Notes: generated by a model from the sequence alone, not told the origin. A stretch of DNA of 64,000 nt from an uncultured Microbacteriaceae bacterium (GCA_964540305.1 CAZILZ010000002.1:28330-92329); one strand, 5' to 3'. Shown: positions 5,110-50,736, numbered from the stretch's first letter. Translations and numbers: made by a program.

Positions 5110-6296
5110 CTCAGAAGGGTCAAACGCTCGACGATCTGCTCGACGATCGGCCGCGGTGTCGCGAGGATCATGCGCACGTGTCCGGCGCCGACGGCACCGC
5201 ACGCCCGACCGTCGGTGACCGACACCTTCGCGCGCTTCTGCAGCGTCACCGCCGGCTCGTCGCCGAGCCCGAGCCGTGAGACGTCGAGCCACGCGATGTA
5301 GGTGCCCTCGGGCGGTGTGTACCCGACCTCGGGCAGGCGGTCGGAGAGCAGCTCGGCGAGCAGCCGTCGGTTCGCGTCGTAGTAGGCGACGGTCGCGTCG
5401 AGCCAGTCGCGGCCCTCGCGGTAGGCGACGGTGTTCGCGATGACCCCGAGGATGCTCGCTCCGTGACTCGCGATCGGTCCGAGCCCGGCCCACACCTCGA
5501 CGTCGGCGTCGTTCGTGAGGATCACCTGGGCGGCCTTCAGACCGGGCAGGTTCCAGGCCTTCGAGGCGCTCGTGACCGTGATGCTGTGAGCGGATGCCGC
5601 GGGGCTGACGCTCGCGTACGGAACATGCCGCGCATCCCCGAACACGATCGGCGCATGCACCTCGTCGGCGAACACCCTCGCGCCGTGCCGCTCGACGACC
5701 TCGGAGAGTGCCAGCAGCTCGTCGCGCTCGAACACGCGCCCACCGGGGTTGAGCGGGTTGCACAGCACGACGAGCCCGGCTCCCGCGACGAGCTCGCGCT
5801 CGATCGCCTCGAGGTCGAGCACGGCGCGGCCGCCGCTCGCCGCCATCGGCACCTCGATCGCGGTGCGCCCGTGCGTGGCCGGCACGGTGAGGAAGGGCAT
5901 GTATGCCGGTGTCGGCACGATCACCGTCGAACCCGGCCGCGAGAAGTGCTCCATCGCGACGACGAAGCCTGCGATGACGTCGGGCAGGGCCTGCACGCGG
6001 GCGGCATCGACGTGCCACTCGTAGCGGTCGCGCATCCACTCGGCGGTCGCCCGCCCCATCTCGGCGGCGACCGAGCGGGGCAGGTAGCCCAGGCGCCCCG
6101 CGTCGACGGCGTCGTGCAGGGCGCGAGTGATCGCGGGAGCCGTGCCGAGATCGCTCTCGGCGACCCACGCGCCGATCGTGCCGGGGAAGAGGCTCCACTT
6201 CATGCTGCCCGCGGCATGCAGCTGCTCAGGGGTGATCGCGTCCCACTGCGCGAAGAGCGCCGCGCGGTCGGCAGGGTGCTCAGGCAAGAGCGCCAT
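5106..6296 (-). CDS. PLP-dependent aminotransferase class I/II, MalY/PatB-type C-S lyase
   Basis: 396 aa. The N-terminal region (...GSMKWSLFPGTIGAWVAESDLGTAPAI...) is typical of MalY/PatB cystathionine beta-lyases, and SASKAWNLPGLK holds the PLP lysine. The start overlaps the pgm stop by 17 nt. Confidence 0.75.
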   Translation of the reverse strand: MALLPEHPADRAALFAQWDAITPEQLHAAGSMKWSLFPGTIGAWVAESDLGTAPAITRALHDAVDAGRLGYLPRSVAAEMGRATAEWMRDRYEWHVDAARVQALPDVIAGFVVAMEHFSRPGSTVIVPTPAYMPFLTVPATHGRTAIEVPMAASGGRAVLDLEAIERELVAGAGLVVLCNPLNPGGRVFERDELLALSEVVERHGARVFADEVHAPIVFGDARHVPYASVSPAASAHSITVTSASKAWNLPGLKAAQVILTNDADVEVWAGLGPIASHGASILGVIANTVAYREGRDWLDATVAYYDANRRLLAELLSDRLPEVGYTPPEGTYIAWLDVSRLGLGDEPAVTLQKRAKVSVTDGRACGAVGAGHVRMILATPRPIVEQIVERLTLLR

Positions 6297-7902
6297 CCAC
6301 GATCGCCTTCGCCTCGCGCTGCACGAGCCGCAGGTGGTCGTCGCCCGCGAACGACTCGGCGTAGATCTTGTAGACGTTCTCGGTGCCGCTCGGCCGGGCC
6401 GCGAACCAGGCCCGGTCGGTGACGACCTTCACGCCACCGATACCCGCGCCGTTGCCGGGCGCGGCGCTGAGCCGCGCGGTGATCGGGTCGCCCGCGAGCT
6501 CGGTGGCCGTGATGGCGGCGCCGTCGAGCTTGCTCAACGCAGCCTTCTGCGCGGGGCTTGCGGGAGCATCCACCCGTTCGTAGACGGGCGTGCCGTACCG
6601 CTCGGTGAGACCGGTGTAGAGCCGCGAGGGCGTCGACCCGGTGACGGCGGTGATCTCAGCGGCGAGCAGGGCGAGCAGGATCCCGTCTTTGTCGGTCGTC
6701 CACGCACTGCCGTCGCGGCGCACGAAGCTCGCGCCCGCGCTCTCCTCGCCGCCGAACGCGACCGAGCCGTCGATGAGGCCCGGCACGAACCACTTGAAGC
6801 CGACGGGCACCTCCCACAGCCGCCGACCGAGCCCTGCCGCGACGTGGTCGATCATCGTCGACGAGACGAGCGTCTTGCCGATCGCGGCGTCGGGGCGCCA
6901 GCCGGGGCGGTGCGTGTAGAGGTACTCGATCGCGACCGCGAGGTAGTGGTTGGGGTTCATGAGCCCGCCGTCGGGCGTCACGATGCCGTGGCGGTCGGCG
7001 TCGGCGTCGTTGCCCGTCAGCAGGTCGAAGTCGTGACGGCGCGCGACGACGCTCGCCATCGCGCTCGGGCTCGACGGATCCATGCGGATCTTCTCGTCCC
7101 AGTCGAGCGTCATGAAGCCCCACTGCGGGTCGACGTTCGGGTTGACGACCGTCAGATCGAGGCCGTAGTGCTCGGCGATGAGCGCCCAGTAGTTCACGCT
7201 CGCGCCGCCGAGCGGGTCGGCGCCGATGCGCAGGCCGCTGGCGCGCACCGCCTCGAGGTCGAGGATGCTCGCGAGGTCGGCCACGTAGTGCAGCCGGTAG
7301 TCGTAGGGCTCGGTGAGCAGCGCCGCCTGGCGCTTCACCCCGCGGTTGCCGTCGGCGATGAGCGCGTTGGCGCGATCGGCGATCCAGTTCGTGGCGTCGC
7401 TGTCGGCCGGCCCGCCGTGCGGCGGGTTGTACTTGAAGCCGCCGTCGCGCGGGGGGTTGTGGCTCGGCGTGATGACGATGCCGTCGCTCTTCGCAGGGGC
7501 GTCGCGGTTGTAGCGGATGATCGCGTGGCTCAGCGCGGGCGTCGGCACGTAGTCGTCGTGCGCATCGATGAGCGCCGTCACGCCGTTCGCCGCGAGCACC
7601 TCGAGCGCGGTCTGCATCGCGGGCGCGCTGAGCGCGTGCGTGTCGGCGCCGACGAAGACCGGCCCGGTCGTGCCCTGACTCGCGCGGTACTCGACGATCG
7701 CCTGCGTGATCGCCGCGATGTGGGTGTCGGTGAAAGCACCGTCGAGGCTCGAGCCGCGGTGGCCGCTCGTGCCGAACACGACGCGCTGCGCCGGGTCGTC
7801 GAGGTCGGGCACGCGATCGACGTACGCGCCGAGCAGCGCGGAGAGGTCGACGAGGTCGGCGGGCTGGGCGGGGGTTGCGGCGCGGCTCATGCGCCCATCC
7901 AA
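6280..7902 (-). CDS. pgm: Phosphoglucomutase, alpha-D-glucose phosphate-specific
   Basis: GTSGHRG and the phosphoserine loop ITPSHNPPRDGGFKYN. 540 aa. Alternative start at 7890. Confidence 0.9.
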   Translation of the reverse strand: MDGRMSRAATPAQPADLVDLSALLGAYVDRVPDLDDPAQRVVFGTSGHRGSSLDGAFTDTHIAAITQAIVEYRASQGTTGPVFVGADTHALSAPAMQTALEVLAANGVTALIDAHDDYVPTPALSHAIIRYNRDAPAKSDGIVITPSHNPPRDGGFKYNPPHGGPADSDATNWIADRANALIADGNRGVKRQAALLTEPYDYRLHYVADLASILDLEAVRASGLRIGADPLGGASVNYWALIAEHYGLDLTVVNPNVDPQWGFMTLDWDEKIRMDPSSPSAMASVVARRHDFDLLTGNDADADRHGIVTPDGGLMNPNHYLAVAIEYLYTHRPGWRPDAAIGKTLVSSTMIDHVAAGLGRRLWEVPVGFKWFVPGLIDGSVAFGGEESAGASFVRRDGSAWTTDKDGILLALLAAEITAVTGSTPSRLYTGLTERYGTPVYERVDAPASPAQKAALSKLDGAAITATELAGDPITARLSAAPGNGAGIGGVKVVTDRAWFAARPSGTENVYKIYAESFAGDDHLRLVQREAKAIVDGALA

Positions 7903-7955
7903 CCACCGGCGGCCGTCGAGGGGGTGGGCGGATGCGCGGCAATAGACTGCCCACC

Positions 7956-8912
7956 ATGACGACCCAGCCCGCCCCGACCCCGGTGTACAGCTACCTGGGC
8001 CCGGCCGGTACCTTCACCTGGCACGCGCTCGGCCAGGTGCCCGAGGCCGCCGGGGCCGAGTGGCGCAGCGTCAGCAACGTCGGCGAGGCCCTCGACGATG
8101 TCGTCTCCGGCCGCAGCGTGGGCGCCATGATCGCGGTCGAGAACTCGATCGAGGGCGGGGTCAGTGCGACCCAGGATGCGCTCGCGACGATCCCGGGGCT
8201 GCGCATCATCGGCGAGTACCTGGTGCCCGTGAACTTCGTGCTCGTCGCCCGGCCCGGGGTGACCCTCGACGACGTGCGGGTCGTCGCCGGGCATCCCGTC
8301 GCCTACGCGCAGTGCCGGCGCTGGCTCGAAAGCGCGCTGCCCACCCACGGGCACATCCCTTCGGCGTCGAACGTCGCCGCGCCGCAGGGCCTGCTCGAGC
8401 CGGGCTCGCCCGCCCAGGCCGCCATCGCGCCACCGGGCATCACCGAGCTGCTCGACCTCGTCGAGCTCGCGAGCGGCATCGGCGACAACGCGAACGCCGT
8501 GACGCGCTTCGTGCTCGTGAGCCGCAGTCGCGAGCTGCCCCCACGCACGGGCGCCGACAAGACGAGCGTCATCGCCGAGCTGCCCGACGACGCCCCCGGC
8601 CGCCTGCTCGAGATGCTCGAGCAGTTCGCGACGCGCGGCGTCAACATGAGCCTCATCGAGTCGCGCCCCATCGGCGACGCCCTCGGCCGCTATCGCTTCG
8701 TCATCGACCTCGACGGGCACGTGCACGACGAGCGCGTCGCCGACGCGCTGCTCGGCCTGCGCCGCTTCAGCCCCAGCGTCATCTTCCTCGGCTCGTACCC
8801 CCGGGCGGATGCGCGGCAGATCGAGGTCGTCTCGCAGTACGGCGACGACGTCTTCACGGATGCCCGCGACTGGCTGCGCGCCATCCTCAGCGGCGAGCCC
8901 GACGCGCCCTAG
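7956..8912 (+). CDS. pheA: Prephenate dehydratase
   Basis: YLGPAGTFT N-terminus, TRF motif (NAVTRFVLV) and ESRP motif (SLIESRPIG) of the ACT domain. Start trimmed to the ATG at 7956 because the upstream part of the track ORF overlaps pgm. Confidence 0.88.
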   Translation: MTTQPAPTPVYSYLGPAGTFTWHALGQVPEAAGAEWRSVSNVGEALDDVVSGRSVGAMIAVENSIEGGVSATQDALATIPGLRIIGEYLVPVNFVLVARPGVTLDDVRVVAGHPVAYAQCRRWLESALPTHGHIPSASNVAAPQGLLEPGSPAQAAIAPPGITELLDLVELASGIGDNANAVTRFVLVSRSRELPPRTGADKTSVIAELPDDAPGRLLEMLEQFATRGVNMSLIESRPIGDALGRYRFVIDLDGHVHDERVADALLGLRRFSPSVIFLGSYPRADARQIEVVSQYGDDVFTDARDWLRAILSGEPDAP

Positions 8913-9042: not shown

Positions 9043-9156
9043 ATGAGCGACATGCCCCGCCCACCCCTCGGCGCTGATCATCTTCGCCTCGCCCAACACG
9101 CAGCCGCGCCTGAGTTCTGCGCGCTCTCGATCCTCGCCTCGGTTGATCACGCGTGA
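9043..9156 (+). CDS. Possible 37-aa leader ORF of the cassette (speculative)
   Basis: ATG preceded by GGGAGAG. The stop TGA (9154-9156) overlaps the GTG start (9153-9155) of the next gene. Sequence MSDMPRPPLGADHLRLAQHAAAPEFCALSILASVDHA. Too short for coding statistics to be reliable. Confidence 0.2.
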   Translation: MSDMPRPPLGADHLRLAQHAAAPEFCALSILASVDHA

Positions 9157-9542
9157 GCGCGCTGCCTCCCGCACCCCCTCAGCCCATCGCGGTCCCCGAC
9201 GGTGCCCAGCGCACTGCTCAGGTCATGCCCGTCATCGTGGCCACCGTCGCGGTTATCGTCAGCGCACTCGTGATTGTCGTCCAGGTCGTCTTCAGCCTCG
9301 ACGTCTGGCAGCTGTACGTGCTCGGCTGGGTGGCGACTCCCGTTGCCACCCTGTTGTGCGTGGGCTGGGATGCGATTGGGCAGCGCGCGGGACTCGCTGA
9401 CCCGTGGTTCGATGCGCGGCCGCAGTACTCGGCTGTGCTGCGCTTGGTCGCCGTGCTCGGGCTCATCCTGGGGGGCTTTCACATCGTTCGCATCGGAATC
9501 GCCGCCGGCACGGCGGCCGTGAGTTCGGGGTGGTTCGGTTGA
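9153..9542 (+). CDS. Small integral membrane protein (about 3 TM), first gene of the vWA/tubulin-like cassette
   Basis: 129 aa with three hydrophobic segments (VMPVIVATVAVIVSALVIVVQVVF, LYVLGWVATPVATLLCVGW, VLRLVAVLGLILGGFHIVRIGIAAG). Its stop overlaps the next ATG (TGATG). Confidence 0.6.
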   Translation: MSALPPAPPQPIAVPDGAQRTAQVMPVIVATVAVIVSALVIVVQVVFSLDVWQLYVLGWVATPVATLLCVGWDAIGQRAGLADPWFDARPQYSAVLRLVAVLGLILGGFHIVRIGIAAGTAAVSSGWFG

Positions 9543-12367
9543 TGCGGCGTCACATGGCACTCGTAGGTGTGCTCGTGGGCGCCCTCATTCTTCCCTTCGG
9601 GGCCGGAGCAGTCGCGTCGACCTCGGAGGAAGAGTCGACGTCGGGCGTCGGCATCCCTGACAGGAGTGCCGCCGCAGAGGCTGCCTTCAGGGACGTGACC
9701 CGCTGCCTTAACTCCGGTCAGAGCCCGAGCCTCGACGTTCTCTACCTCGTCGACCTCTCCGACTCCATCGACAAGTACGGCCTGGGCGGCATCCTTCAGA
9801 CGGTGCTCTCGACGAGCGTCCAGCAACTCGATCGGTTCCGCGATCGCGGCACGGAAGTGGCGTACTCGCTCGTGGCATTCGGGTTCGACCACGAGACTCT
9901 TATTCCGTGGACGGCGATCGACGGATCCGACCAGACGGATGCAGTTGAAGGGGCACTGTCTAACGCCTCCGTGGATGGACGGGGGACCAACTATCTTGCT
10001 GGCCTCGAGGCAGCTCAAGAGCAGCTTGAGATGCGTTCTGGGTCCTGCCGCATGCTCATCTGGATGACGGATGGTGCCGTCAACATGGGAGGTGCGTTTG
10101 ACAGCGTCTTCCCGAGCCTGGAGCGGATCTGCCGGCCTGGAATATCCAGAGATGGGCTCGGACCTGCAGGGGGTGGTTTCGGCATCATGCAAGAGCTGCG
10201 TGACTCCGGGATTCCCACCTTTGGCGTCTTCTTCACGAATGACCAGCTCAGGGAGGGTCTACTCGATTTCGAGCGTTGGAAGATCGACTTCTTGCGGCCG
10301 ATCGTCGAAGGCAGAGGTGTGGTCGCCCCCCTTGACTCCGAAACGGAAGGTGAGCTCAGCGGGTTCACTTTAGAGTGCGCAGAGGTCGATGACGAGGGCG
10401 TGGCTCCTTCGGGCTCCGCAAACGGAGCGCTCATTGAGTCGGAGGATCCCGTCGCTCTAGCGTTCGACTTCTTGCGGCTCGAGGCGGGCCTTTCTGGCGG
10501 TACTGGGGCACCGACCGCCGAAGATGGAAGCTTTGAGGTGCCTGCCGGCACTGCCTACTTCCGCGTCATCCTGCCGTCTGATCAGTGGTCGCTGACCGAC
10601 CCGAATGGCGAGGCCGTCCCCGTGAAGCCGAGTTCGATTACCCAGGCAGGCGGGGCGACCTCCATCGAGGTCGAGGTTGACGAGTCGGGATGGGGGGAAT
10701 GGACGGTCTCCAGCGAGGGAAACGCGATCGTCTACCTGTTCACGGGTCTGGCGCTGGTTCTCGACCGCGACTTGAACGACAGCATCCTCAGCGAAACAGA
10801 AAACACCCTGAGCGGCAGAGTGGTGGCGGAGAGCGGGCGCGAGATCGTCGTGAACGACGATCTCGTGCGCCATTTCTCAGACTGGGGAACCGTCGACGTC
10901 GAAGTGGTTGCGGGAGGCCTCCAGTCGCAACCTTCCGGGAGCCTCTCCTCCACCGGCGTGTTCGAAGTGTCCGGGCTCACGCCAGAGGACTCTGCGCCTA
11001 TCGAACTGCGAGTGTCGTTGGCGCTCGGCGGCGAGTTCGATCCCATCGAGTCGACCTTCCAGCTCCGTGTGGTTGACGGTGGGGCATTCGCGCTCCCTGC
11101 AAGCAAGAGCCTCGAACTGACGACGCTCGAGGGCCCGGACGGCGCGGCAACGGGCGTCCTGCAAATACTCCCGCCAGACGCTGCAGAGTCCGCTCAAGTC
11201 TGCGTGGCATCTCCGCAGCGCCTTGACGATCTCCCTAGTGCGCGAAATGACCCTGTGAGACCTCGAGGTTCCTTCACCTGGGCGATTGACTCTGACGCTG
11301 AGATCGATGGCGACGGGTGCTTCACCGTTCACCGTGACGAACCAGTCCAACTGTCGATTTCGATCGGGAATCCAGAGCAGCTCAACTCCCGAGTGGTTGG
11401 TGCATTCACCGTCGAGTCGCGAACCGCAGATGGAACCTCCGAGCACATTGAGCCCGTCCTCCTCGGATTCGACTCTCGAACGCAGCAGAACCCATGGATT
11501 GTCGCCGCGGCGATCATCCTGATGCTGATTCTCGGGCTAGGGCTGCCGATGTTCGCTCTCTGGCTCTGGAACCGCGCATCAACGAAGTTTGCGCCGGTCG
11601 AAGCGGTGACACGCGTTGCCTACCCCGTTCGAATAGAACGCGCTGGCCGACTGGCCGTACTGGACCGTCGACATGACTCCGACGGTCAACGGATCACAGT
11701 GCGCCCCAACGACTTCAGTTACGTGGCATCCCAGCCCACGAGCGCCGTTTTCGATTCAGGGCGCGGCCAGATGCGTGCGCGGGTGCCATGGTTCCCGCTG
11801 TCCAAGTCGTGGTTCGAGTGGGTAGCGCCTCCGGGTCACCGTGTCGTCTCCGTCGTCGCTGGCAGCACCAAGCAGACGCGGGAGGTCGAGTCGTTCCTGG
11901 CGACAGAGGTGTCGGCAGACATCGCCCGGGCGTGGGCGATCATCGTGTCCGATTCCGCGCTTCTCTCCGAAGACTCCTCGATTGACGGAGATCTCGTCGT
12001 ATTCAGCGGGATGCACAGTGACGTCAGGCAGTACCAGCGCCGCGTTGACGACGTCATTGCCACCCCCGGCCTTATCGATGCTTTGACGGCTGCCGCGGAA
12101 TCGGCCCGTGCTGATCGCCAGGTCGGCTCCACTGGTGCGGTGTCGTTTGAGCCTGTGAGCGTCGGGGTAGCCGTCCCTTCTTCTATGCCTGATCGGTCTG
12201 GACGGTCGATGCATCAGCCGGGAGCGCCCACGCCTCCGGGTGCGCGATCGTTCGACCCAGTGCAGAGCGAGCCCGCCGTCGGCTCAAACACTCCATCGGA
12301 ACCGGGTCCGCTCGCCCCGCCGCGGCCTCCGTCTGGACCGTTGGCGCCCCCGCCGCCCCCGCAATGA
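9542..12367 (+). CDS. Exported von Willebrand factor A (vWA) domain protein with a single C-proximal TM helix and a cytoplasmic Pro-rich tail
   Basis: Signal peptide MRRHMALVGVLVGALILPFGAGAVAS. MIDAS DxSxS (DLSDS at 9752-9766), later TNYLAG and MTDGA. TM helix WIVAAAIILMLILGLGLPMFALWLW (about 11495-11569). Tail ...PLAPPRPPSGPLAPPPPPQ. Start trimmed from 9404 to 9542. Confidence 0.8.
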   Translation: MRRHMALVGVLVGALILPFGAGAVASTSEEESTSGVGIPDRSAAAEAAFRDVTRCLNSGQSPSLDVLYLVDLSDSIDKYGLGGILQTVLSTSVQQLDRFRDRGTEVAYSLVAFGFDHETLIPWTAIDGSDQTDAVEGALSNASVDGRGTNYLAGLEAAQEQLEMRSGSCRMLIWMTDGAVNMGGAFDSVFPSLERICRPGISRDGLGPAGGGFGIMQELRDSGIPTFGVFFTNDQLREGLLDFERWKIDFLRPIVEGRGVVAPLDSETEGELSGFTLECAEVDDEGVAPSGSANGALIESEDPVALAFDFLRLEAGLSGGTGAPTAEDGSFEVPAGTAYFRVILPSDQWSLTDPNGEAVPVKPSSITQAGGATSIEVEVDESGWGEWTVSSEGNAIVYLFTGLALVLDRDLNDSILSETENTLSGRVVAESGREIVVNDDLVRHFSDWGTVDVEVVAGGLQSQPSGSLSSTGVFEVSGLTPEDSAPIELRVSLALGGEFDPIESTFQLRVVDGGAFALPASKSLELTTLEGPDGAATGVLQILPPDAAESAQVCVASPQRLDDLPSARNDPVRPRGSFTWAIDSDAEIDGDGCFTVHRDEPVQLSISIGNPEQLNSRVVGAFTVESRTADGTSEHIEPVLLGFDSRTQQNPWIVAAAIILMLILGLGLPMFALWLWNRASTKFAPVEAVTRVAYPVRIERAGRLAVLDRRHDSDGQRITVRPNDFSYVASQPTSAVFDSGRGQMRARVPWFPLSKSWFEWVAPPGHRVVSVVAGSTKQTREVESFLATEVSADIARAWAIIVSDSALLSEDSSIDGDLVVFSGMHSDVRQYQRRVDDVIATPGLIDALTAAAESARADRQVGSTGAVSFEPVSVGVAVPSSMPDRSGRSMHQPGAPTPPGARSFDPVQSEPAVGSNTPSEPGPLAPPRPPSGPLAPPPPPQ

Positions 12368-12416
12368 CAACGCCCTGAACCCACCCATCGACTTTCGCAA
12401 GAGAATAGGAATCGAC

Positions 12417-15400
12417 ATGCTGCAGCCGTTCATCCTCATCGGAGTCGGTGGTTCAGGGGGCAAGACGGTTCGTGCCGTGCGCCAGAACCTCCAATGGAAG
12501 CTCGAGCAGCTTGGCTGGTCGCACCTGCCCAAGGGCTGGCAGTTCCTGCACATCGACGCCCCGACCTCTCCCGATGGCATCGACTTTCCGGCACCCCTTC
12601 TTCCTCAGGACGACTACTTGTCGGTGGTGCCACGGGGGCTCAGCTACCGGCAGGTGCACGACCGCGCGATCAACGGGCTCGGCAAAGAGGTCGCTCGTGA
12701 AGCGATGCGCCCGCTGCCTGCTCCGCCGGACGTCACCGTGCCCATCGAACTCGGTGCAGGAGCACTTCGTGGCATCGGGCGGACGTTGCTCGTCGCTGGA
12801 TTGAAAGATGTCTCAGATCGCGTCCGGGGCATGCTCAGTGAAGCAACCGGGCAAGGGGCGGACGCGGAGTTGGCCCAGCTGACTCGTGAACTCGGCTTCA
12901 AGGTGGGTATCCCGAGCAGCACGCCGACGATCATCGTCATCTCTTCTGTGGCAGGGGGCTCCGGGGCAGGAATGTTCATCGACGTCTCGGAAGCGATCAA
13001 GGCTGCAGTGGGGCCCAAGGACGCCGCCCATCGGATCTTCTCCCTGTTGTACGCCCCGGACGTATTCGAAGAGCTTGGTCCCAAGGCGATGGCGGCCATG
13101 GTGCCGAACTCAATGGGCGCTTTGTCGGAGCTCGTCGCGGGCTTCTGGCGCGGAATGCCTACCCAGACGACGATGAGCGTCTACAAGCAGAAGGGCCTGA
13201 CGGTACCGACTGACGACAAGTCCACGATCGGCCCCGGCTTCAACTATGTGCTGGGTCGCCGAAACGGAGGCGCGAACGCTATCGACTTCGGTTCGCAACA
13301 GGGCGTGTACCTCGCAGTGGCGTCGAGCGTGACAGCGTGGATGACGGATGCGCGAGTGCAGGACAACCTGACCGCGTACGCCGTGGCGAACTTCCAGACG
13401 CTCTCTGCCAACCTCACGGACAACTCGCTGCTCAAACCGAGTGGCAAGGGTCAGCCGTTGTCGTCGTTGGGATTCGCCCGGGTCTCACTCGGTACCGAGA
13501 AGTTCTTCGAATACGCCGCAGAGCGAATCGCCAAGCAAGCCGTGACCACGATGCTGACGCAGCACCTCTCGACAGATCCAGAGCGTCGTGAGAAGAAGGA
13601 AGATCAGTGGATCGAGCACCACGCGAATCTGAATGAAGGAACCTTCATCGCGGATTCTGGCCTCAACGAGCGCACAGAACTCAACAATCAAGTCACTGAA
13701 GCGCTTCAGCCCGATCTCGAGCCGCACTATGCGAAGCTCCGGCGAGTCATCGAAGAGGCCGCGACGGCGGGAATGCCCGCCGGCGGGCAGTCCTTCGACC
13801 AGTGGACCACGAAGATCGTCAACGCCTACCAGTTGAACCTCTCTGACGTGCGCGACGAGGTGGAGCGGCTTCGCAACGAGAAGATCCGCTCGTGGGTCAT
13901 CACGCAGCCGACGGAAGTTCTCGCCCTGGTCACGAAGACGATGTCGCAGCTCGGTCTCCCCGTCACCGTGAAGCTCCTCGAGCGGTTGATTCAGCAGTGC
14001 AAAGAGGCCATTGGCGACTTGAAGGAAGAGCGGGGCCGGCACCTGCGTGACGCAGACGCCCTGACCCAGAACGTCTCGCAAGCGCTCGGTGCAGCGTCCG
14101 GCATGAGCACCATTCCGCGGACGAACCCTGCCGTTGCACAAGCACTTCACCAGGCCCAGATGTGCTTCTACTGGTCGACCATGGCTGACCTCAAGGAGTC
14201 AACCGGTGAGCTGCTCGAAGACTTCGTGGGCGGGTACTTGGCGCCGCTCACCAAGAGGCTCGCGGAGGGCTTGGAGGTCCTCCGTTCATCGGCCACGGAC
14301 CCGAATCTGCCGGACGGAAACGTCAATCCCTACCTCGTATGGCCGACCTTCGACCAGACGACCGTCGACCGCAGATTCGATCCTGCGCCCAACGAGCAGA
14401 TGTTGATCTCGCCTGACGCCTTCGCATCGGAGTTCGATCGACTGGTGCTTGACAGTGTGAGCGACCCTCATCTGCCTGCGCATCGCATCGTCATTGACGA
14501 AGTGCTCTTGGGGGCGAACCTTCCGGACGTCGCCAAGCTGAAGCACGAAGACCAGTGGAAGATTCTCTCCGTGCCGGATGGCAGAGGGTGGATTCCGAAG
14601 AATCGCCACTTCCAGCCGTCGACCGCGAGCAACCAAGTTGCGCAGTTCGCCTTCGAGACCGATCCATTGAAGTACCTGAGCGTCTCAAAGAAGTGGATTC
14701 GACTCCCCGGCCGCGCCTTCAGGGCATTCATCGAGCAGACGGTCGTGTCGTACCTGAAGACCAGCGACCAAGCAGAGCGAGCGCGTCGCGGTAAGCGCTT
14801 CACCGCTGCAATGGCCGCCGCAGCGCAGTCGTCGTACCCCTTGGTTGCGCTCGACCGGGCATTGCTCGATGCGACACACGGGCCTATTGAGGTGAGCGCG
14901 GTATGTTCCGGTATCCCGCTCGACCGTGAAGACCCGCTCTACGAGCCCATCGCGAACTCTCTGCTCACCAATGGGTATGACCCCGAGAAGGCCGCGAAAG
15001 ACTGGTTCGTCGGCGAGGGCAAGGGCAGCATGATCAAGTCGATCGAGATCTTCGCCCAACTGAGTGTCTCGATGGGCCCGATCCCGCTCGCCTCAATGCT
15101 CAGCCCGATCTTGAACGAGTGGAACCGCGTCTCGAAGAACACCGCGGCACGCATGGGCTTCATGTCCATGCGGCGGGCTCGCCTGCTCCCCGAGGCCATC
15201 CCCGCGCATCCTACGCATTGGCGAGCAATGCTTGCAGGGTGGTTCGTAGCTCGTCTCCTGAATCAGGTGCAGGAGGACAAGTCGGGCAAGGACTTCAAGG
15301 ATGCTGGGCCGCAGTTGAGCGTCTGGGCAGACGATGCCCGCGGCTTCGTCGATTTCCCGTTTCCGCTGTATTCGGCACATATTGCGAGCAGCATCCATCA

Positions 15401-15812
15401 CTACCCGGGGGTGATCCTCGATTCACTGATGATCGCACTGGCACAGTGTCATGGTGCGCACAATCTCAGCCCGCTCGCGCCATACCAGCGGCTGCTCGAG
15501 CTGGGCGGTGGTGGCGGACACTGGATCGATCTTCAGGAGTGGGTGCTCACCGGAAAGCCGCGACACGGGGCTCCTACCCCCAAGTCGGAGCGTGCGGGAT
15601 CGTCGGAGCTCGACGTCGAAGGTCGTCGTGCGGCGTGTGTGGCCTACCTCGAGTCGTGCCAGTCGACTTTTGACAAGTTCATCAGCGCGCTCAACCCGAA
15701 TGCTGACCCGCGCACCTACCCGGTCAGCTGGGAGATTCGCGAGGACGTCGAGTGGGCGATCAACCAGGCCATCGACGCGTGCAATCACGTCGATGACGGC
15801 GAAGAGCTCTAA
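12417..15812 (+). CDS. Large (1131 aa) tubulin/FtsZ-superfamily-like GTPase domain protein (Tubulin_2 / FtsZ-like type)
   Basis: N-terminus MLQPFILIGVGGSGGKTVRAV resembles the FtsZ T1 loop (compare IGVGGGGGNAV). IIVISSVAGGSGAGMFIDV resembles the tubulin signature/T4 loop (GGGTGSG). AGGA RBS 7 nt upstream of the ATG. No TM segments, and about 700 aa of uncharacterised C-terminal sequence. Confidence 0.7.
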   Translation: MLQPFILIGVGGSGGKTVRAVRQNLQWKLEQLGWSHLPKGWQFLHIDAPTSPDGIDFPAPLLPQDDYLSVVPRGLSYRQVHDRAINGLGKEVAREAMRPLPAPPDVTVPIELGAGALRGIGRTLLVAGLKDVSDRVRGMLSEATGQGADAELAQLTRELGFKVGIPSSTPTIIVISSVAGGSGAGMFIDVSEAIKAAVGPKDAAHRIFSLLYAPDVFEELGPKAMAAMVPNSMGALSELVAGFWRGMPTQTTMSVYKQKGLTVPTDDKSTIGPGFNYVLGRRNGGANAIDFGSQQGVYLAVASSVTAWMTDARVQDNLTAYAVANFQTLSANLTDNSLLKPSGKGQPLSSLGFARVSLGTEKFFEYAAERIAKQAVTTMLTQHLSTDPERREKKEDQWIEHHANLNEGTFIADSGLNERTELNNQVTEALQPDLEPHYAKLRRVIEEAATAGMPAGGQSFDQWTTKIVNAYQLNLSDVRDEVERLRNEKIRSWVITQPTEVLALVTKTMSQLGLPVTVKLLERLIQQCKEAIGDLKEERGRHLRDADALTQNVSQALGAASGMSTIPRTNPAVAQALHQAQMCFYWSTMADLKESTGELLEDFVGGYLAPLTKRLAEGLEVLRSSATDPNLPDGNVNPYLVWPTFDQTTVDRRFDPAPNEQMLISPDAFASEFDRLVLDSVSDPHLPAHRIVIDEVLLGANLPDVAKLKHEDQWKILSVPDGRGWIPKNRHFQPSTASNQVAQFAFETDPLKYLSVSKKWIRLPGRAFRAFIEQTVVSYLKTSDQAERARRGKRFTAAMAAAAQSSYPLVALDRALLDATHGPIEVSAVCSGIPLDREDPLYEPIANSLLTNGYDPEKAAKDWFVGEGKGSMIKSIEIFAQLSVSMGPIPLASMLSPILNEWNRVSKNTAARMGFMSMRRARLLPEAIPAHPTHWRAMLAGWFVARLLNQVQEDKSGKDFKDAGPQLSVWADDARGFVDFPFPLYSAHIASSIHHYPGVILDSLMIALAQCHGAHNLSPLAPYQRLLELGGGGGHWIDLQEWVLTGKPRHGAPTPKSERAGSSELDVEGRRAACVAYLESCQSTFDKFISALNPNADPRTYPVSWEIREDVEWAINQAIDACNHVDDGEEL

Positions 15813-15815
15813 GAG

Positions 15816-17702
15816 ATGGCGCTCGATCCGATTTGGAGCCAGTCGGGGCTTTCGGTAGTGCTTCTCCCGGCCGGGGAGCGTGGCCTCACTCTCCTCGAGC
15901 TCGCTCGAGACTGGACAGTACTGAAGCTCTTGAGACCGTCCGTGTGGGTGCGCCCCGAGGAAGTCACTGCTATTCCGGGTGAACCTCCCCGCGTACTTGC
16001 TCACATTCTGGGCAGCTCAACCACCAACGAGCTCGAAGAGATTGAAGTTGACCTCTTCGAACAGCTCGCGCGCCAGGGGTTGACGGGCACGCGCCTGTTG
16101 GTCGTCCGTCCGCTCGCGGAGGGCGTCGAGTTCGATGCCGACCAGGATCGTGCGGTCGACGTCCTCGCCCCATATTTGAAGAACTCGATTCCCCAGGTGC
16201 CGACGTCGGCGGTGACGTCGACCGATCAGATTCCTTTTCTCTTGATCAACCTCCTGGTGGGGCCGACGGAACACGTCACTGCGTGGGCCGACCAGGTTGT
16301 CGCAGCTCGGCAGCCCTTCAACGCGCACATCGTGGCTTCGCCGGAGGACCGTTCGAGTCCGTTCTCCGGCGATGCCTTCGTTCGGTATGACAATGCCGGT
16401 GGCCGGTTTGCTGGCTTCGCCATGATGCACATCGCCACGATCGCCGGATTCTGGCAGGGCTTGCCGCGCGGGGGCTACGAGTTGATCCGTGAGACCGCCT
16501 GGGAAGGGAACCGGGCTTATGTCTCGCGGGTATTCGCGAGCGCCATTCTTACCGACGGCCTGATTCAGCGCGCCTGCGCCCGTGTATTGGAGCGCGCCGC
16601 ATCGGCAGACCCCGAGCGATCGGCACTCACGGTCGAGGCCAACGTCAGCGACACGTTCGCAATCACCGACGATGTCAACGATCCGTGGATCAACTACCTG
16701 ATTGACCAGGCCTTCTCTCTGCGCGATGGCGCTCTCGCGTATCGCCCCGCGATCTCTGACGAAACCCCGGTGAAGACGGAGTTCACCCTGTGGAACCAGT
16801 TTTTAGACTTCTCTCGGTTCTCAGTCGACAAGCTCGTGCGCGCTCCGTACTACTTTGGTCTGGCCCTGTATCGCCGCATTGCACGAACGTCGAATGCGAC
16901 CCTTCAGGGAGGGGACCGCGGTTCGGCGTTCGTCGACGAGCGCGCAGACAAGCCTGACATCCGTGATCTCGAACTCCTGCGAAGGTACGACCAGATTGCG
17001 GAGGAGAAGAGTCGGGCAGATCGCGCGCTCGTCTCGCCCGTTCTCGCCAGTGCGACGCGCACCCCGCCCGAACTCTGGAGCGATCTCCGCAAACTGGTGT
17101 TTGCCTTCCTCGACGGTTCCGGTCAAGAACAGTTCGGTGTTCGCCGAACCGAGGCGGGCCGGCCCGTGTTTCCTCGAGTGCAGTCACTGTTCACTGACCC
17201 CAGCGTCACCGTGACCGTGGCAGACCCCGATCGACCGGGGGACATGATTGAACTCGGCTGGTTGGCGAGACGCGAGACGGCGGAAGCCCTCGACCGCCTG
17301 GCCCAATCGATCATTCGTGGCAATGACGAGCTCGATGCACTGTTGACCGAACTCGTCGACGCCTCCGCGAGACGCGACACACTCGTGGCGCGTCTCGATG
17401 AACTCGACCGTGAGCGCGTGGACGCGGTTGAGCAGCAAGAACGACAGCGTGCGGCTGAACGGGACGCCGAGCGACTCGCCGAGCGTGAGGCGGCTAAGGC
17501 AGCAAAGTCCGCAGCGGCAAAGTCGACAGCGGGGTCGGCCGCAGCGAAGCCGAGGAAGGGCCGTTCTGCGCCGGCGACCAATGCATCCGAGACCAGCAGC
17601 CCCGAGGTTGATTCTGACGACAGGGGGGAGATGGCAGACGAGGCGGCTCGCTCGTCTTCGTCGTCTCTCGCTTCGTCGTCGAAGGGAGTTCCCACGTCAT
17701 GA
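15816..17702 (+). CDS. Uncharacterised 628-aa protein with a C-terminal coiled-coil and an Ala/Lys/Ser-rich low-complexity tail
   Basis: Starts 3 nt after the tubulin-like gene stop. No recognisable catalytic motif. Heptad-like charged segment ...LTELVDASARRDTLVARLDELDRERVDAVEQQERQRAAERDAERLAEREAAKAAKSAAAK... Confidence 0.6.
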   Translation: MALDPIWSQSGLSVVLLPAGERGLTLLELARDWTVLKLLRPSVWVRPEEVTAIPGEPPRVLAHILGSSTTNELEEIEVDLFEQLARQGLTGTRLLVVRPLAEGVEFDADQDRAVDVLAPYLKNSIPQVPTSAVTSTDQIPFLLINLLVGPTEHVTAWADQVVAARQPFNAHIVASPEDRSSPFSGDAFVRYDNAGGRFAGFAMMHIATIAGFWQGLPRGGYELIRETAWEGNRAYVSRVFASAILTDGLIQRACARVLERAASADPERSALTVEANVSDTFAITDDVNDPWINYLIDQAFSLRDGALAYRPAISDETPVKTEFTLWNQFLDFSRFSVDKLVRAPYYFGLALYRRIARTSNATLQGGDRGSAFVDERADKPDIRDLELLRRYDQIAEEKSRADRALVSPVLASATRTPPELWSDLRKLVFAFLDGSGQEQFGVRRTEAGRPVFPRVQSLFTDPSVTVTVADPDRPGDMIELGWLARRETAEALDRLAQSIIRGNDELDALLTELVDASARRDTLVARLDELDRERVDAVEQQERQRAAERDAERLAEREAAKAAKSAAAKSTAGSAAAKPRKGRSAPATNASETSSPEVDSDDRGEMADEAARSSSSSLASSSKGVPTS

Positions 17703-19576
17703 CCGAGTCAGTGAAGACGGCGCCCGTTGCGGATGAACTGGATGAGCAACAGGAGCCGACACATCGAAGCGTTGCGGAGGTCGACGCAGAACTCGCAGCT
17801 GCTCGGGCGGAGATCGTCGCACTCGAGCGGCGGCGGGCTGAGGTTGCTGTCGCGACTGAGCACCTCCAGGAACTCATCAACGACCGAGATCTCGCACTTA
17901 AGGATCTGCAGGCCTGGGTGGACAGCATCGATCGAAGCTTCTCGTGGAAGCTCCAGGAGGGTATGTCGGAGAACCTCTCGAAGGCGCAGTCGCATCTAGG
18001 CGAATTCGAATCCGCGGTCTCGGGGCTGGAAGTCCCTGCTCGCGGTGTGCTCGCTGAACTTCGCGACCGGTTCTATCGCGGTCTCGCACGAGGGCTCGTC
18101 ATCCTGCTCATGCCCGCTCTCATCGGGGTGATCGTCTTCCTGCTCCTTCGTTTTGGCCTCGGGGAGACCCTGACGGCGCTTTTCGGCACGGGGGGAGAGC
18201 TGACTGGCGTTCTGACCGTGCTGGTGCTCAGCGGCGTGGTGCTCGGAGTACTCGCTCTCATCGGCCGCATGACTGGAAGTCGATGGCTGAGGGGAGCGGT
18301 GCTAGGACGCATCGGGGTGGTCCTGGCCGTGATCGCCGGGGTGCTCTTGCTTGTCGCGTGGTTGAGCCAACCCAGCGATACGGGCTCTGCGGAGGTGCCA
18401 GAGCCGATCGCTGGGGTGGCGGGAGACATCATCGCGGCGCAGGTATTGCGGTGGTTCGTCGACAACCTGTGGTGGATCATCCTCGCCTATGTTCTCGTGA
18501 TCGTCGCGACGATCGTCGCCCTTCTCGTGGCGTATTACACGGGTTGGTCGGTGTTCCGTCGTCAGGTGACTGAGCAGTTCACCCGGCTGGAAAACGTCTC
18601 GCGCGGATACAGGCAGACCAAGCAGGAGGTGAAGCGCCTCGAGCAGCTGTACGAACAACTCTCGACCTGGCTCGAGATCATCGCTCACAGCCTGTATCGG
18701 CCCTGGCGCATCGACCCGCGTTGGGTGACGTCGCATGAGCTGCAGTTGTCGGCTGAGAACTTTCCGTTCGCGCTGCGTGTCGCACAGGCGACCGATGCAG
18801 AGTCAGCGCAGGTCGCGAATCTCGAACGGCTGATTGCAGAGCGACTGCTTCAGCAGGGCTGGCGTCAAGAGGCGTTCGACGACATGCTCGGCGCCATTAA
18901 TGCGGCAGAGGGCTACGAGCACGGCCGCCTTACTCCACAACTCCTTGATGCTGACCTGCCCCACCAGAGCAACAACTCTCGGGAGCTCGTGCTCGCTCGA
19001 CTGCGGGCGGCCGCACTGGATGACGCAGACGGAGACGAGACTCGACAGCAGTTCCTCGTCGATGTCGCTCGTCTGCGCCTGCGCGACCTCATTCGACGGA
19101 CTCAGTCGCAGGTGCTGTCTGAGGCGCGACCCGATGTCGTGCAGATCGTAGTTGACCCGCTTTCAGGGGTGCGGGAGGGACACATGGGTGTCGCTGGCGA
19201 GGTCGCCCCGACGACCTGGGATGACTTCCTCAAGGATGCTCTCGGCATCACCGAGGAAGAGCCCGAACTCAGCCGGATGTCGTTCACCGAAGAGGGCTTG
19301 GCGAGCCGGGCCCCGTCCGCGGTCAAGACCCGACTCATCGTTCCGACGCGTCTTGCCGACACCTTGCCGCCAGTAGATGGACGCGTGGGCCAGGTTGTGC
19401 CGACGGCTGATGTGAGTACGGGACGGTCCGCGGAGGTGCTGGTGAGATTCGACGCCGTGGGACCGCTGCCGTTTGAGCATGTGCATCTGGTGCAGGCCGT
19501 GAGCGGGTCGTTTACGCGGGCCGCGGAGGAGACGGCCGTGGCGGTCGAGGTACCCGTCGACGACGAGGAGCTCTGA
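17699..19576 (+). CDS. Uncharacterised 625-aa membrane protein: N-terminal coiled-coil, 4-5 TM helices, C-terminal soluble domain
   Basis: ATGA overlap with the preceding gene. Coiled-coil AEVDAELAAARAEIVALERRRAEV... Hydrophobic block from GLVILLMPALIGVIVFLLL to WWIILAYVLVIVATIVALLVAYY. Confidence 0.6.
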   Translation: MTESVKTAPVADELDEQQEPTHRSVAEVDAELAAARAEIVALERRRAEVAVATEHLQELINDRDLALKDLQAWVDSIDRSFSWKLQEGMSENLSKAQSHLGEFESAVSGLEVPARGVLAELRDRFYRGLARGLVILLMPALIGVIVFLLLRFGLGETLTALFGTGGELTGVLTVLVLSGVVLGVLALIGRMTGSRWLRGAVLGRIGVVLAVIAGVLLLVAWLSQPSDTGSAEVPEPIAGVAGDIIAAQVLRWFVDNLWWIILAYVLVIVATIVALLVAYYTGWSVFRRQVTEQFTRLENVSRGYRQTKQEVKRLEQLYEQLSTWLEIIAHSLYRPWRIDPRWVTSHELQLSAENFPFALRVAQATDAESAQVANLERLIAERLLQQGWRQEAFDDMLGAINAAEGYEHGRLTPQLLDADLPHQSNNSRELVLARLRAAALDDADGDETRQQFLVDVARLRLRDLIRRTQSQVLSEARPDVVQIVVDPLSGVREGHMGVAGEVAPTTWDDFLKDALGITEEEPELSRMSFTEEGLASRAPSAVKTRLIVPTRLADTLPPVDGRVGQVVPTADVSTGRSAEVLVRFDAVGPLPFEHVHLVQAVSGSFTRAAEETAVAVEVPVDDEEL

Positions 19577-19662
19577 GCCAGCCCATCGGCACGTCGAGCT
19601 CGCTCTCTCCACCACCCGCGCCCAACGCGGCTCCTCTGTCGGGAAACGACGAGACGGGTGAG

Positions 19663-20469
19663 GTGTCGGAGAGCACAGACGGCGCCATCTCGCGCTGGAG
19701 TATTCGACCCTGGCTCGCGATCGTCGCACTTGTGGTCGCCTTCGCGATCGGCGGTCTCGCGGGATATGCGATTCGGGGGGAACCGGCCTCGAATGAAGGG
19801 ACCCCCCGTCCTGACGCCGCGCCATCTACCAGCTCGTCGGCTGTCGCCACCCCGATTCCCCCCGTCGGGGGTTCGCCGGCACCGAGTGGCCCAAACCGCG
19901 ATCCTTCCATCACGTCGGCAGACCTTCTCATTGATCAGCTGGACACCTTGACCACATCGAGGGGGTTCGTGGCGGACTACGACAGGGACTTGTTCGGTCA
20001 GAACGGCTTCGACTTGGACCGCAACGGCTGCGACACGAGAAACGACATTTTGCGCCGCGACCTACTCGACATCGTGCTCAAGGCTGACACCAACGGGTGC
20101 AAGGTGCTTCGAGGAACATTGATTGACCCGTACTCCGGGCAGGCGATCGACTTCATCTCAGGCGAAACGACCTCATTCGAGGTTCAGATCGACCATCTGG
20201 TGCCGCTGGCATGGGCCTGGCAGAACGGAGCAAGCCTCTGGACGATTGACCGGCGAACGGAGTTCGCCAACGATCCCGAGAACCTACTGGCGGTGGAAGG
20301 AGGTCTGAACCAGGAGAAGTCGGCGTCAGGGCCGGCAGAGTGGTTGCCCCCCAACCGCGCGTTCCACTGCGACTACGCGGCGGGCTTCGCGGCCGTGCTT
20401 GTCGAGTATGGCCTCGCCGTGCCTGACGACGATCGTGCTGTTCTGATCGACATCCTCGAGCGCTGCTGA
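19663..20469 (+). CDS. Membrane-anchored HNH-type nuclease, DUF1524 (GmrSD C-terminal-like) family
   Basis: N-terminal TM helix WLAIVALVVAFAIGGLAGYAI, a Ser/Pro linker, then ...RNGCDTRNDILRRDL...VQIDHLVPLAWAWQNGA...NLLAVEGGLNQEKS..., typical of DUF1524/HNH nucleases. GTG start is uncertain. Confidence 0.7.
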   Translation: MSESTDGAISRWSIRPWLAIVALVVAFAIGGLAGYAIRGEPASNEGTPRPDAAPSTSSSAVATPIPPVGGSPAPSGPNRDPSITSADLLIDQLDTLTTSRGFVADYDRDLFGQNGFDLDRNGCDTRNDILRRDLLDIVLKADTNGCKVLRGTLIDPYSGQAIDFISGETTSFEVQIDHLVPLAWAWQNGASLWTIDRRTEFANDPENLLAVEGGLNQEKSASGPAEWLPPNRAFHCDYAAGFAAVLVEYGLAVPDDDRAVLIDILERC

Positions 20470-20481
20470 CGGGTGCGTCGC

Positions 20482-21489
20482 CTAGGCGCGCGGCACGCGC
20501 ACCACCAGTGACGCCGGCGCCACCCGCGCCGAGATGGCGGTGACCTGGCCCATGCTCTCGCCGTCGATCTCGAACTCCTCCGGTCGTTCGAGGGCGAGCG
20601 TCATGCGACGGCCCTGGAAGTAGCGAAGGGCGCGCACGCTCTTATCGGCGGCCAGGATGCGGCGGCCGATCTTCGTGCGCTGCAGCACGCCGTTCTCCCA
20701 CGCCACGGCGTAGCCGACGCGCATCCAGCCCCACAGATTGCGCGGGCGCATGGCGACGACGTCGAGCAGGCCGTCGTCGATCTGCGCTTCGGGCAGCAGC
20801 AGCACGCCGCCGGGCAGGGTGCCGCAGTTGCCGATGAGCAGCGTGTGCACGGTCGTCGCCCGCTCGGGCGAGCCGTCGAGCGTGTAGCGCACGCGCACCG
20901 CGTCGACGTCGCGCACGATGCGCGCCGAGGCTTCGACATAAGCGAGCCAGCCGACACGTTTCTTGAGCTCGTCGTTCGTTGCCGCGATCATGCGGGCGTC
21001 GAGGCCGATGCCGAGCATGACGACGAAGGCGTGGGTCTCGCGCGAACCGTCGGCCCGCGTGATGTCGGCCACGCCGACGTCGATCGCGTGGTCGACCCCC
21101 GTGACGGCGGTGCTCACGGCCTCGGCGAGCCTGCCGATCGGAATGCTGAGGTTGCGGGCGAGCAGGTTGCCCGTTCCGGCCGGGAGCAGCACCATCGGGA
21201 TGCCCGAATCGAGCATCCCCTCGGCGACCGCCCGCACCGTGCCGTCGCCGCCGGCCGTGAGCACCGCGGTCGCGCGCGAGGCGATGGCCGCGCGAGCGCA
21301 CCCCTGGCCGGGGTCGTCGACGCTCGTCTCGAGCCACAGCGAGGGCGCCCAGCCCGCCTCGGCCTCGGCGGCGGCCACGGCCGCGCGCAAGGCATCCATG
21401 TCGACCTTCGTCGGGTTGACGACGACGGCGACGCGGGCGACGTCGGCCGCGCGCGCGGCGGGGTCGGGCGCCGAGCCGGGGGTGCTCAT
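20482..21489 (-). CDS. Diacylglycerol kinase-family lipid kinase
   Basis: VAVVVNPTK..., GGDGTVRAV and [14 protein letters not shown] motifs. Start trimmed to the ATG at 21489 (MSTPGS...). Confidence 0.8.
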
Positions 21490-21561
21490 GCGGTCAGAGT
21501 AGAGCATGGGCCCGTGACGACGCGGGGGCATGTGTTAACCCGCGCGTGCCAGACTAGAACG

Positions 21562-50008: not shown

Positions 50009-50014
50009 CCTCCC

Positions 50015-50036
50015 ATTGTCGCCCTGCCCGCTGACA
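50015..50036 (-). promoter_or_regulatory. RecA-NDp/PafBC-type promoter-like motif upstream of lhr
   Basis: The minus strand reads TGTCAGCG-N8-GACAAT-gggagg-ATG. The mycobacterial consensus, as I recall it, is tTGTCRgtg-N8-TAnnnT. The spacing is compatible with a leaderless or very short-leader transcript. Confidence 0.3.
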
Positions 50037-50046
50037 GGCCGCTCGC

Positions 50047-50682: not shown

Positions 50683-50736
50683 GCTCCCATCGTGTCAGGT
50701 GCGCCCGCGACGGCGTTGCACGAGACACAATGGAGC

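Follow-up and report, generated by a model that had tools for sequence, protein, structure and literature searches.

The closest described relatives of the protein considered here belong to FtsZl1, a family that Makarova and Koonin defined computationally in 2010 (Biol Direct 5:33; PMC2875224) and for which they proposed a role in membrane remodeling. Our subject is a gene in a 64,000-nucleotide (nt) stretch of DNA from an uncultured Microbacteriaceae bacterium (GCA_964540305.1 CAZILZ010000002.1:28330-92329), hereafter the window. A single open frame at 12417-15812 (+), confirmed by translation, encodes 1131 amino acids (aa) and a stop. Judged by its sequence and predicted structure, the product belongs, as a divergent member, to FtsZl1/Pfam Tubulin_2, which probably diverges more than any other branch of the FtsZ-tubulin superfamily. 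An earlier note on this DNA had arrived at a tubulin/FtsZ reading from two glycine loops, and Pfam Tubulin_2, an AlphaFold2 model and Foldseek matches to FtsZ now support it. The novelty that the note implied was overstated, because giant tubulin-like proteins like this one in size and context had already been published as the FtsZl1 family (Pfam PF13809; PMC2875224).

[quoted passage not shown] Makarova and Koonin could not identify the T6-H7 elements or the C-terminal domain of FtsZl1 and left filament formation open (PMC2875224). The FtsZl1 genes, too, adjoin a gene for a von Willebrand factor A (vWA) protein and have membrane-associated partners. A difference lies in the C-terminal region, which is predicted to be mixed alpha/beta in our model of the window protein and was described as "mostly alpha-helical" for FtsZl1. 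In many other lineages (for example, Rhodococcus, Corynebacterium and cyanobacteria) FtsZl1 operons contain frequent but not obligatory partners, namely a predicted novel P-loop GTPase, a Ser/Thr kinase or an OmpA-family protein, whereas the actinobacterial cassette sub-type is without them, as is the Xylanimonas-type locus (PMC2875224). The latter, Xcel_1380-1377 in Additional file 5 of the same paper, encodes, in this order, proteins of 84 aa, 918 aa (vWA), 1118 aa (FtsZl1) and 1027 aa, and it is the cassette found here, with the two genes that we call P3 and P4 fused. The family and the gene order were already known (FtsZl1, PMC2875224). What we add is a confident model that backs the FtsZ fold of the N-terminal domain and from which the FtsZ C-terminal subdomain is apparently absent, evidence against a universally kept T7 catalytic acid, and a C-terminal tail common to the tubulin-like protein and P4, a testable handle that could reveal a tethering or regulating interaction.

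A second published account is that of Kaur, Burroughs, Iyer and Aravind (2020, eLife 9:e52696; PMC7159879), who placed actinobacterial tubulin and vWA neighborhoods among DO-GTPase/GAP1-N2 conflict systems. The tubulin-containing systems occur in Actinobacteria and Firmicutes only. They combine a single tubulin, fused to an uncharacterized C-terminal domain, with a vWA protein that is bound to the membrane and partly extracellular, and they were proposed to act near the membrane. In a 2023 phylogeny, Tubulin_2 proteins appear as an outgroup only.

The gene and the domain that carries the family assignment are as follows.
12417..15812, + strand: FtsZl1/Tubulin_2-family protein, 1131 aa (translation, Pfam, conservation, AlphaFold2 model, Foldseek)
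12417..13586, + strand: predicted N-terminal FtsZ/tubulin-fold GTPase domain, residues ~1-390 (PF13809 at residues 6-376; model; Foldseek to FtsZ)

Pfam Tubulin_2 (PF13809) matches residues 6-376 with E=2.4e-43 and 149.2 bits (cutoff 27), spanning profile positions 1-355 of 356, and is carried by all 120 homologues listed. This agrees with the remark in the earlier note that a known motif accounts for just the first third of the protein. There was no meaningful NCBIfam match. A full-length AlphaFold2 model, built on an 81-sequence alignment, has a mean predicted local distance difference test score (pLDDT) of 91.5 and a predicted template-modeling score of 0.82, and strands S1-S6 of its N-terminal domain are interspersed with helices in the pattern of the FtsZ GTPase domain. 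When the model was compared with the PDB by Foldseek, FtsZ chains took almost every one of the first 50 ranks (8gzx_A was the best, at E=7.7e-4 and probability 1.00), with template-modeling scores normalized to the target of 0.44-0.49 over about 370 aligned columns at 10-16% identity; against viral models, phage FtsZ and phage tubulins lead. An hhalign comparison of the family profile with Escherichia coli FtsZ aligned the T4, T5 and H7 region at E=0.012, with a probability that is low because the template is a single sequence. The family hidden Markov model (HMM) retrieved spurious coiled-coil matches only from PDB sequences, and no FtsZ or tubulin chain, so that there is no solved relative by sequence. 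Clusters that match the family at 50% identity number 2189 with a cutoff of E<=1e-3 and 767 with one of E<=1e-30, and nearly all of the best 150 listed are 1100-1200 aa long and align end to end.

The start at ATG 12417 is preceded by a purine-rich stretch. A longer in-frame GTG start at 12240 exists, and it was ruled out because it overlaps the end of the upstream gene and because the homologues all begin at a common MLxPF, which identifies ATG 12417 as the true start.

Conservation was read from a close set of 81 homologues (34-85% identity) and from a distant set of 136 representatives (24-38% identity) drawn from 1.84 billion proteins by index-free HMM search; the alignment for the distant set has 137 sequences. 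The candidate nucleotide-binding elements are listed here.
12441..12467, + strand: T1-like loop GVGGSGGKT, residues 9-17 (G9, G11, G12, S13, G14 and G15 in at least 95% of 137; K16 in 118/137; T17 in 129/137)
12555..12557, + strand: Asp47 after strand S2 (HID), in 137/137; putatively T2-like from the order of the elements, compare "NTD" of FtsZ
12753..12782, + strand: T3-like motif GAGALRGIGR, residues 113-122 (G113, A114, G115, R118, G121 and R122 at least 95% conserved)
12942..12971, + strand: strand S4 and T4/tubulin-signature-like loop SSVAGGSGAG, residues 176-185 (S177, G180, G181, G183 and G185 at least 95% conserved)
13050..13076, + strand: T5-like segment YAPDVFEEL, residues 212-220 (F217 invariant; P214 in 112/137; D/E215 in 134/137)

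The two glycine loops lie where the earlier note had placed them, GVGGSGGK at residues 9-16 (nt 12441-12464) and AGGSGAGM at residues 179-186 (nt 12951-12974), and their motifs are invariant among homologues: G9, G11, G12, G14, G15, T17, S177, G180, G183 and G185 do not vary in the 81 close sequences, and G9/G11/G12/S13/G14/G15 with S177/G180/G181/G183/G185 are at least 95% conserved in the distant set. On this alignment evidence, the glycine motifs are not chance glycine runs.

Like FtsZ, the tubulin-like protein combines an N-terminal GTPase fold with a T1 glycine loop, a T3 GAGxxxxxGR, a T4 GGxxGxG and a T5 P-x-x-F. Its T3-like motif (GAGxxRxxGR) is in register with GAGANPEVGR of E. coli FtsZ, and hhalign sets the SSVAGGSGAG loop on AAGMGGGTGTG and the T5-like segment on TKPFNFEG of the same protein. 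Unlike FtsZ, the tubulin-like protein is three times larger, its T1 loop ends in K-T instead of N, it appears to have neither an FtsZ_C subdomain nor a strictly conserved NxDxxD T7 loop, and about 170 residues separate T1 from T4. The claim that the second loop sits at the spacing of the tubulin signature therefore stands in part: the order of the elements fits, but the distance does not. T1 and T4 are about 85 residues apart in FtsZ and about 135 in tubulin, and the greater distance in the tubulin-like protein is accounted for by insertions between the loops.

The same T1-like loop contains GGSGGKT, whose GK[ST] ending gives it an outward likeness to Walker A, and the glycine loops could on that ground be assigned to an unrelated P-loop (Walker A) or Rossmann domain whose likeness to tubulin is superficial. 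We rejected this identity and consider it extremely improbable, because the Gx4GK[ST] spacing does not fit, residue 10 of the loop is aliphatic (V, L, I or C across the 137 sequences), the T3 motif is in register with FtsZ, the Pfam match is Tubulin_2, and the structures matched come from FtsZ and tubulins rather than from P-loop nucleoside triphosphatases.

Beyond strands S1-S6 the model departs from FtsZ. It continues with long helices at 294-310 and 312-331, a solitary hairpin at 348-357 and then a series of long helices, and the four-stranded FtsZ C-terminal subdomain is not evident in it. The Pfam scan (E<=0.01) returned PF13809 only, with no match to FtsZ_C, Tubulin_C or PF00091. The subdomain thus looks to be absent from the protein, as far as the model portrays it. 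The search for an equivalent of the T7 loop, which the earlier note had described as needed for polymer-activated GTP hydrolysis, gave a negative or at best divided answer: Q315 and D335 are invariant among the 81 close homologues, but no acidic position after the central helices (H7) is strictly kept across the 137 diverse members, the candidates being D335 (67%), D311 (45%) and D/E316 (58%). With the FtsZ C-terminal subdomain apparently absent and no T7 acid strictly kept, canonical polymer-activated hydrolysis is doubtful.

These observations bear on the idea that the protein forms a canonical cytomotive filament, assembling head to tail like FtsZ, TubZ and tubulin, with a T7 equivalent (for example, D335) that activates GTP hydrolysis by the neighboring subunit and a C-terminal part that decorates the polymer. 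All characterized members of the superfamily form filaments, as is argued in PMC2875224, and the intact nucleotide-binding loops, the invariance of Q315 and D335 in the close set, and Foldseek alignments of about 370 columns on FtsZ chains of about 305 residues are in line with such a polymer. Set against this are the incomplete conservation of D335 and of every other acid after H7 in the distant set, the lack of the four-stranded subdomain in the model, the lack of FtsZ_C and Tubulin_C in the Pfam scan, and template-modeling scores that reach 0.44-0.49 only, and we regard a filament of this kind as unlikely. TubZ and PhuZ are, as is the tubulin-like protein, divergent prokaryotic GTPases of the tubulin superfamily on mobile DNA, and their C-terminal tails matter for assembly or partner binding; phage tubulins are among the structural matches of the tubulin-like protein in the viral library. 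TubZ and PhuZ differ in their length of about 300-480 aa, in keeping the C-terminal subdomain and T7, and in having adaptors that are DNA-binding (TubR) and not vWA or membrane proteins.

The remaining two-thirds of the protein fall into two parts.
13599..14336, + strand: predicted helical stalk or bundle, residues ~395-640 (model DSSP; helices 460-512, 514-547 and 571-627)
14337..15791, + strand: predicted mixed alpha/beta C-terminal region, residues ~641-1125 (confident in the model; conserved throughout)

The stalk agrees with the "extended coiled-coil" given for FtsZl1 (PMC2875224). Residues ~641-1125 have no Pfam match, no PDB-sequence match and no credible Foldseek match in the PDB and viral libraries; their mean column identity is about 50% in alignment A2, and W725, R791, P808, R920, P929, G941, W942, P981 and Y1023 keep a conservation of 95% or more in sequences of only about 28% identity.

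The most distinctive property of this C-terminal part lies at its very end. Within a locus, the last three to four residues of the tubulin-like protein agree with those of P4 (or the P3-P4 fusion), and between loci they vary, as the following tails illustrate.
15792..15809, + strand: tubulin-like tail DDGEEL, which pairs with the P4 tail
19556..19573, + strand: P4 tail VDDEEL, which pairs with the tubulin-like tail
Locus L002: tubulin-like APDDL, P4 HNDDL
Locus L009: tubulin-like KKSGI, P4 RKSGI
Locus L010: tubulin-like ERSGV, P4 TYSGV
Locus L030: tubulin-like SEEEE, P4 EEEDD
Locus L039: tubulin-like LESFN, P4 DGGFN
Locus L055: tubulin-like PGVWN, P4 PNVWN
Locus L058: tubulin-like DRAFL, P4 SDAFL
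Locus L074: tubulin-like EDRLS, P4 EDRLS
Locus L078: tubulin-like DELFT, P4 DDVFT

Across 60 loci, the two proteins share a mean of 2.0 of the last three residues. With each of the 22 tail classes represented by a single locus, identity was seen at 37 of 66 positions where 7.9 were expected, a value that none of 20,000 permutations reached. A shared domain as the source of the matching tails was ruled out, because hhalign finds no common homologous domain in the tubulin-like protein and P4. Co-variation of the tails without a shared domain implies a shared docking site, the simplest reading being one co-evolving, cassette-encoded pocket for both. The last block of the tubulin-like model has a pLDDT of about 34, which indicates a tail that does not pack against the rest of its chain. 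We did not find this co-variation reported in the literature searched, nor does it appear in the available parts of PMC2875224.

The account that we favor, and hold to be reasonably likely, is that of an FtsZl1 protein whose N-terminal domain would serve as an assembly or switch module at the membrane face, with a non-canonical interface and with tail docking shared with P4. The N-terminal domain would bind GTP through the invariant glycine loops and, depending on the nucleotide, would assemble or switch on the cytoplasmic side of the membrane. Self-association, and any activation of the GTPase, would probably proceed via the stalk and C-terminal region and not via the head-to-tail interface of FtsZ, a proposal made because the FtsZ C-terminal subdomain seems to be absent and no T7 acid is strictly conserved. 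The tails of the tubulin-like protein and P4 may dock in one co-evolving pocket of a cassette-encoded partner, much as the FtsZ peptide does on FtsA or ZipA, and the FtsZ C-terminal peptide is in this respect the presumed analogue of the tubulin-like tail. Docking could tether or regulate the complex at the membrane, and the vWA protein may link it to the cell surface.

Several observations weigh against this account. The Foldseek template-modeling scores are moderate and the root-mean-square deviations high, with only the core GTPase domain clearly superposing. The counts of tail classes are phylogenetically not fully independent, despite the 22 distinct classes. Two monomers were modeled with AlphaFold2, the tubulin-like protein and a natural P3-P4 fusion (P0162), and each has a disordered tail. 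The latter model is mediocre (pLDDT 73.8), and Foldseek found no credible fold match for it, the best being a glutathione-synthetase N-domain at E=0.034. A scan for association between alignment columns and tail class in all five cassette proteins, in which one large clade dominated, brought out none as the receptor. Finally, the literature searched by family name and locus tags held no experimental study of any family member; GTP binding, hydrolysis and assembly are inferred.

In the cassette, whose genes are closely packed and point the same way, the tubulin-like gene comes third, and three junctions overlap or are 3 nt apart; the other cassette genes, and the nuclease gene that follows them, are these.
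9153..9542, + strand: small protein with three predicted transmembrane helices, 129 aa, first gene of the cassette (tblastn with small upstream open reading frames (ORFs) of loci L025, L010 and L082, E 1.9e-14 to 4e-10)
9542..12367, + strand: vWA membrane protein (Pfam VWA_2 5e-9, VWA 2.4e-6)
15816..17702, + strand: P3, 628 aa, soluble, starting 3 nt past the stop of the tubulin-like gene
17699..19576, + strand: P4, membrane protein of 625 aa whose start codon overlaps the P3 stop (ATGA)
19663..20469, + strand: membrane-anchored GmrSD_C/DUF1524 (HNH-type) nuclease (Pfam GmrSD_C 9.5e-16)

The small protein, which has no Pfam match, is newly recognized here by its homology to small ORFs of other loci. 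Its stop codon (TGA, 9540-9542) overlaps the ATG of the vWA gene by one base (TGATG), the start of the latter having been moved from GTG 9404 to ATG 9542. The vWA protein consists, in order, of a signal or anchor peptide, an extracytoplasmic vWA domain whose metal ion-dependent adhesion site motif DxSxS is intact (VDLSDS), a long region, one transmembrane helix (WIVAAAIILMLILGLGLPMFALWLW) and a cytoplasmic part of about 270 aa with a Pro-rich end. P3 has a conserved alpha/beta and helical N-terminal region of about 480 aa, a coiled coil and a disordered Ser-rich tail; it gave no Pfam, NCBIfam or PADLOC match and no PDB fold match. That P3 might be a degenerate second tubulin was ruled out, as hhalign of P3 against the tubulin-like family gave no similarity. 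P4 comprises an N-terminal coiled coil, about four to five transmembrane helices (residues ~130-290) and, on the cytoplasmic side, a conserved C-terminal domain; no Pfam family matched it, and hhalign against the tubulin-like family showed no similarity beyond the coiled coil. Neither FNIII nor HRDC was matched in the vWA protein, P3 or P4 (Pfam, E<=0.01). The nuclease has an N-terminal transmembrane helix and a Pro/Ser-rich linker and probably faces outward, into the extracytoplasmic space.

To judge how far this arrangement is kept, one genome per species was scanned, which yielded 117 relatives and 80 retained loci; cassette counts out of 81 include the window. The 80 loci are nearly all annotated as Actinomycetota (Microbacteriaceae, Nanopelagicaceae, Cellulomonas, Cellulosimicrobium, Nocardioidaceae, Kutzneria and others), and in most of them the order vWA, tubulin-like, P3, P4 recurs on one strand. 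Of the 81 loci, 65 have a syntenic vWA gene immediately before the tubulin-like gene, 71 a syntenic P3 and 59 a syntenic P4, and in 42 a homologue of the small protein lies upstream of the vWA gene. P3 and P4, separate in the window, are fused into a protein of about 1030-1090 aa in Clavibacter, Leifsonia, Subtercola, Microbacterium and others (for example, L025 13416-16544 and L010 13412-16642; proteins P0159-P0179), and 12 of the 57 P3 homologues are such fusions, with lengths of 1028-1089 aa. These fusions imply that P3 and P4 interact physically. The hosts include Microbacteriaceae that can be grown in culture and are mostly environmental or associated with plants (Clavibacter, Leifsonia, Rathayibacter, Microbacterium).

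The guanine-plus-cytosine (GC) content falls to 62-64% over about 10-20 kb of the window (positions ~10000-20000) from about 70% on either side, and this interval coincides with the block from the vWA gene to the nuclease gene. The flanks are housekeeping genes, namely a pgm-like phosphoglucomutase (6280-7902), a pheA-like prephenate dehydratase (7875-8912) and a diacylglycerol-kinase-like gene (20482-21531). Low GC between housekeeping genes makes the cassette look horizontally acquired in the window genome, and such an island, together with a patchy distribution, makes it unlikely that the tubulin-like protein is the division protein. The genes outside the cassette differ from genome to genome. 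A GmrSD_C nuclease occurs in 26 of the 80 loci within flanks of about 10 kb, usually directly downstream, and is the only recurrent family (13 matches) among 142 ORFs flanking 38 cassettes, the rest being mixed transport and housekeeping genes.

A role for the cassette in envelope or membrane remodeling is possible, as is one in biological conflict or defense. Systems of the latter kind were proposed by Kaur, Burroughs, Iyer and Aravind in 2020: on that model, the cassette would be an anti-phage or abortive-infection system in which the tubulin-like effector forms nucleotide-dependent multimers once a surface or vWA sensor has been set off, a scheme compatible with the mechanism that we favor. 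Their description of an actinobacterial single tubulin with a C-terminal helical domain and a membrane-bound vWA protein (PMC7159879) suits our locus, and the GC-poor island, the variable flanks, the nuclease that often adjoins the cassette and sporadic matches of flanking genes to defense models (a type IV restriction enzyme, ZacA, HEC-06, SoFic) point the same way. However, the DO-GTPase and GAP1 core pair was found neither in the cassette proteins by Pfam and NCBIfam, the Pfam copy used being one that may not contain the models, nor among recurrent flanking genes, and 40 related loci showed no further gene that recurs; the cassette proteins and recurrent flanking genes likewise included no GTPase, GAP1, HRDC-FNIII, kinase or OmpA partner. 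PADLOC-DB 2.0 gave no credible match for any cassette protein, the sole hit being a marginal one of the tubulin-like protein to PprDinG (E=0.006, 12.7 bits), and the immediate neighbors are mostly housekeeping or transport genes. The cassette (~10 kb) is also retained in two complete Nanopelagicaceae chromosomes of 1.49 and 1.50 Mb (L030 and L053), which we take to be streamlined freshwater actinobacterial genomes; its retention there suggests a function worth its cost. We hold a conflict system to be less likely than not.

A bolder extension of the favored mechanism would make the cassette a self-contained transmembrane machine, in which an FtsZ-fold GTPase without the canonical polymerization interface carries a tail "zip-code" that P4 mimics, the pocket and the tails co-evolving as a specificity code against cross-talk between different cassettes. 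We offer this as speculation that is rather less likely to be right than wrong. If true, it would represent an operating mode new to the tubulin superfamily and linked with a vWA sensor at the cell surface and, in some cases, with a nuclease outside the cell.

Three further observations were made along the way. At locus L084 (10001-13375; protein P0035) a solitary homologue with 48% identity stands without vWA, P3 or P4 neighbors; its T3 and T4 loops are degenerate (LAPAPYR, SSLFGVSGSG), its tail has drifted (PTVQL), and a bacterial ubiquitin-like set (JAB, ThiF, YukD, UQ_con) lies nearby. It may be a decaying or repurposed copy. Elsewhere in the window, a stretch of 74-77% GC at 45497-50728 (-) encodes a 1743-aa Lhr-type large helicase (DEAD, Helicase_C, DEAD_assoc and four Lhr winged-helix domains). 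A 3236-aa ORF at 51456-61166 (+), with 10 DUF5979 and 2 DUF7601 matched stretches, is probably a giant repetitive surface protein.

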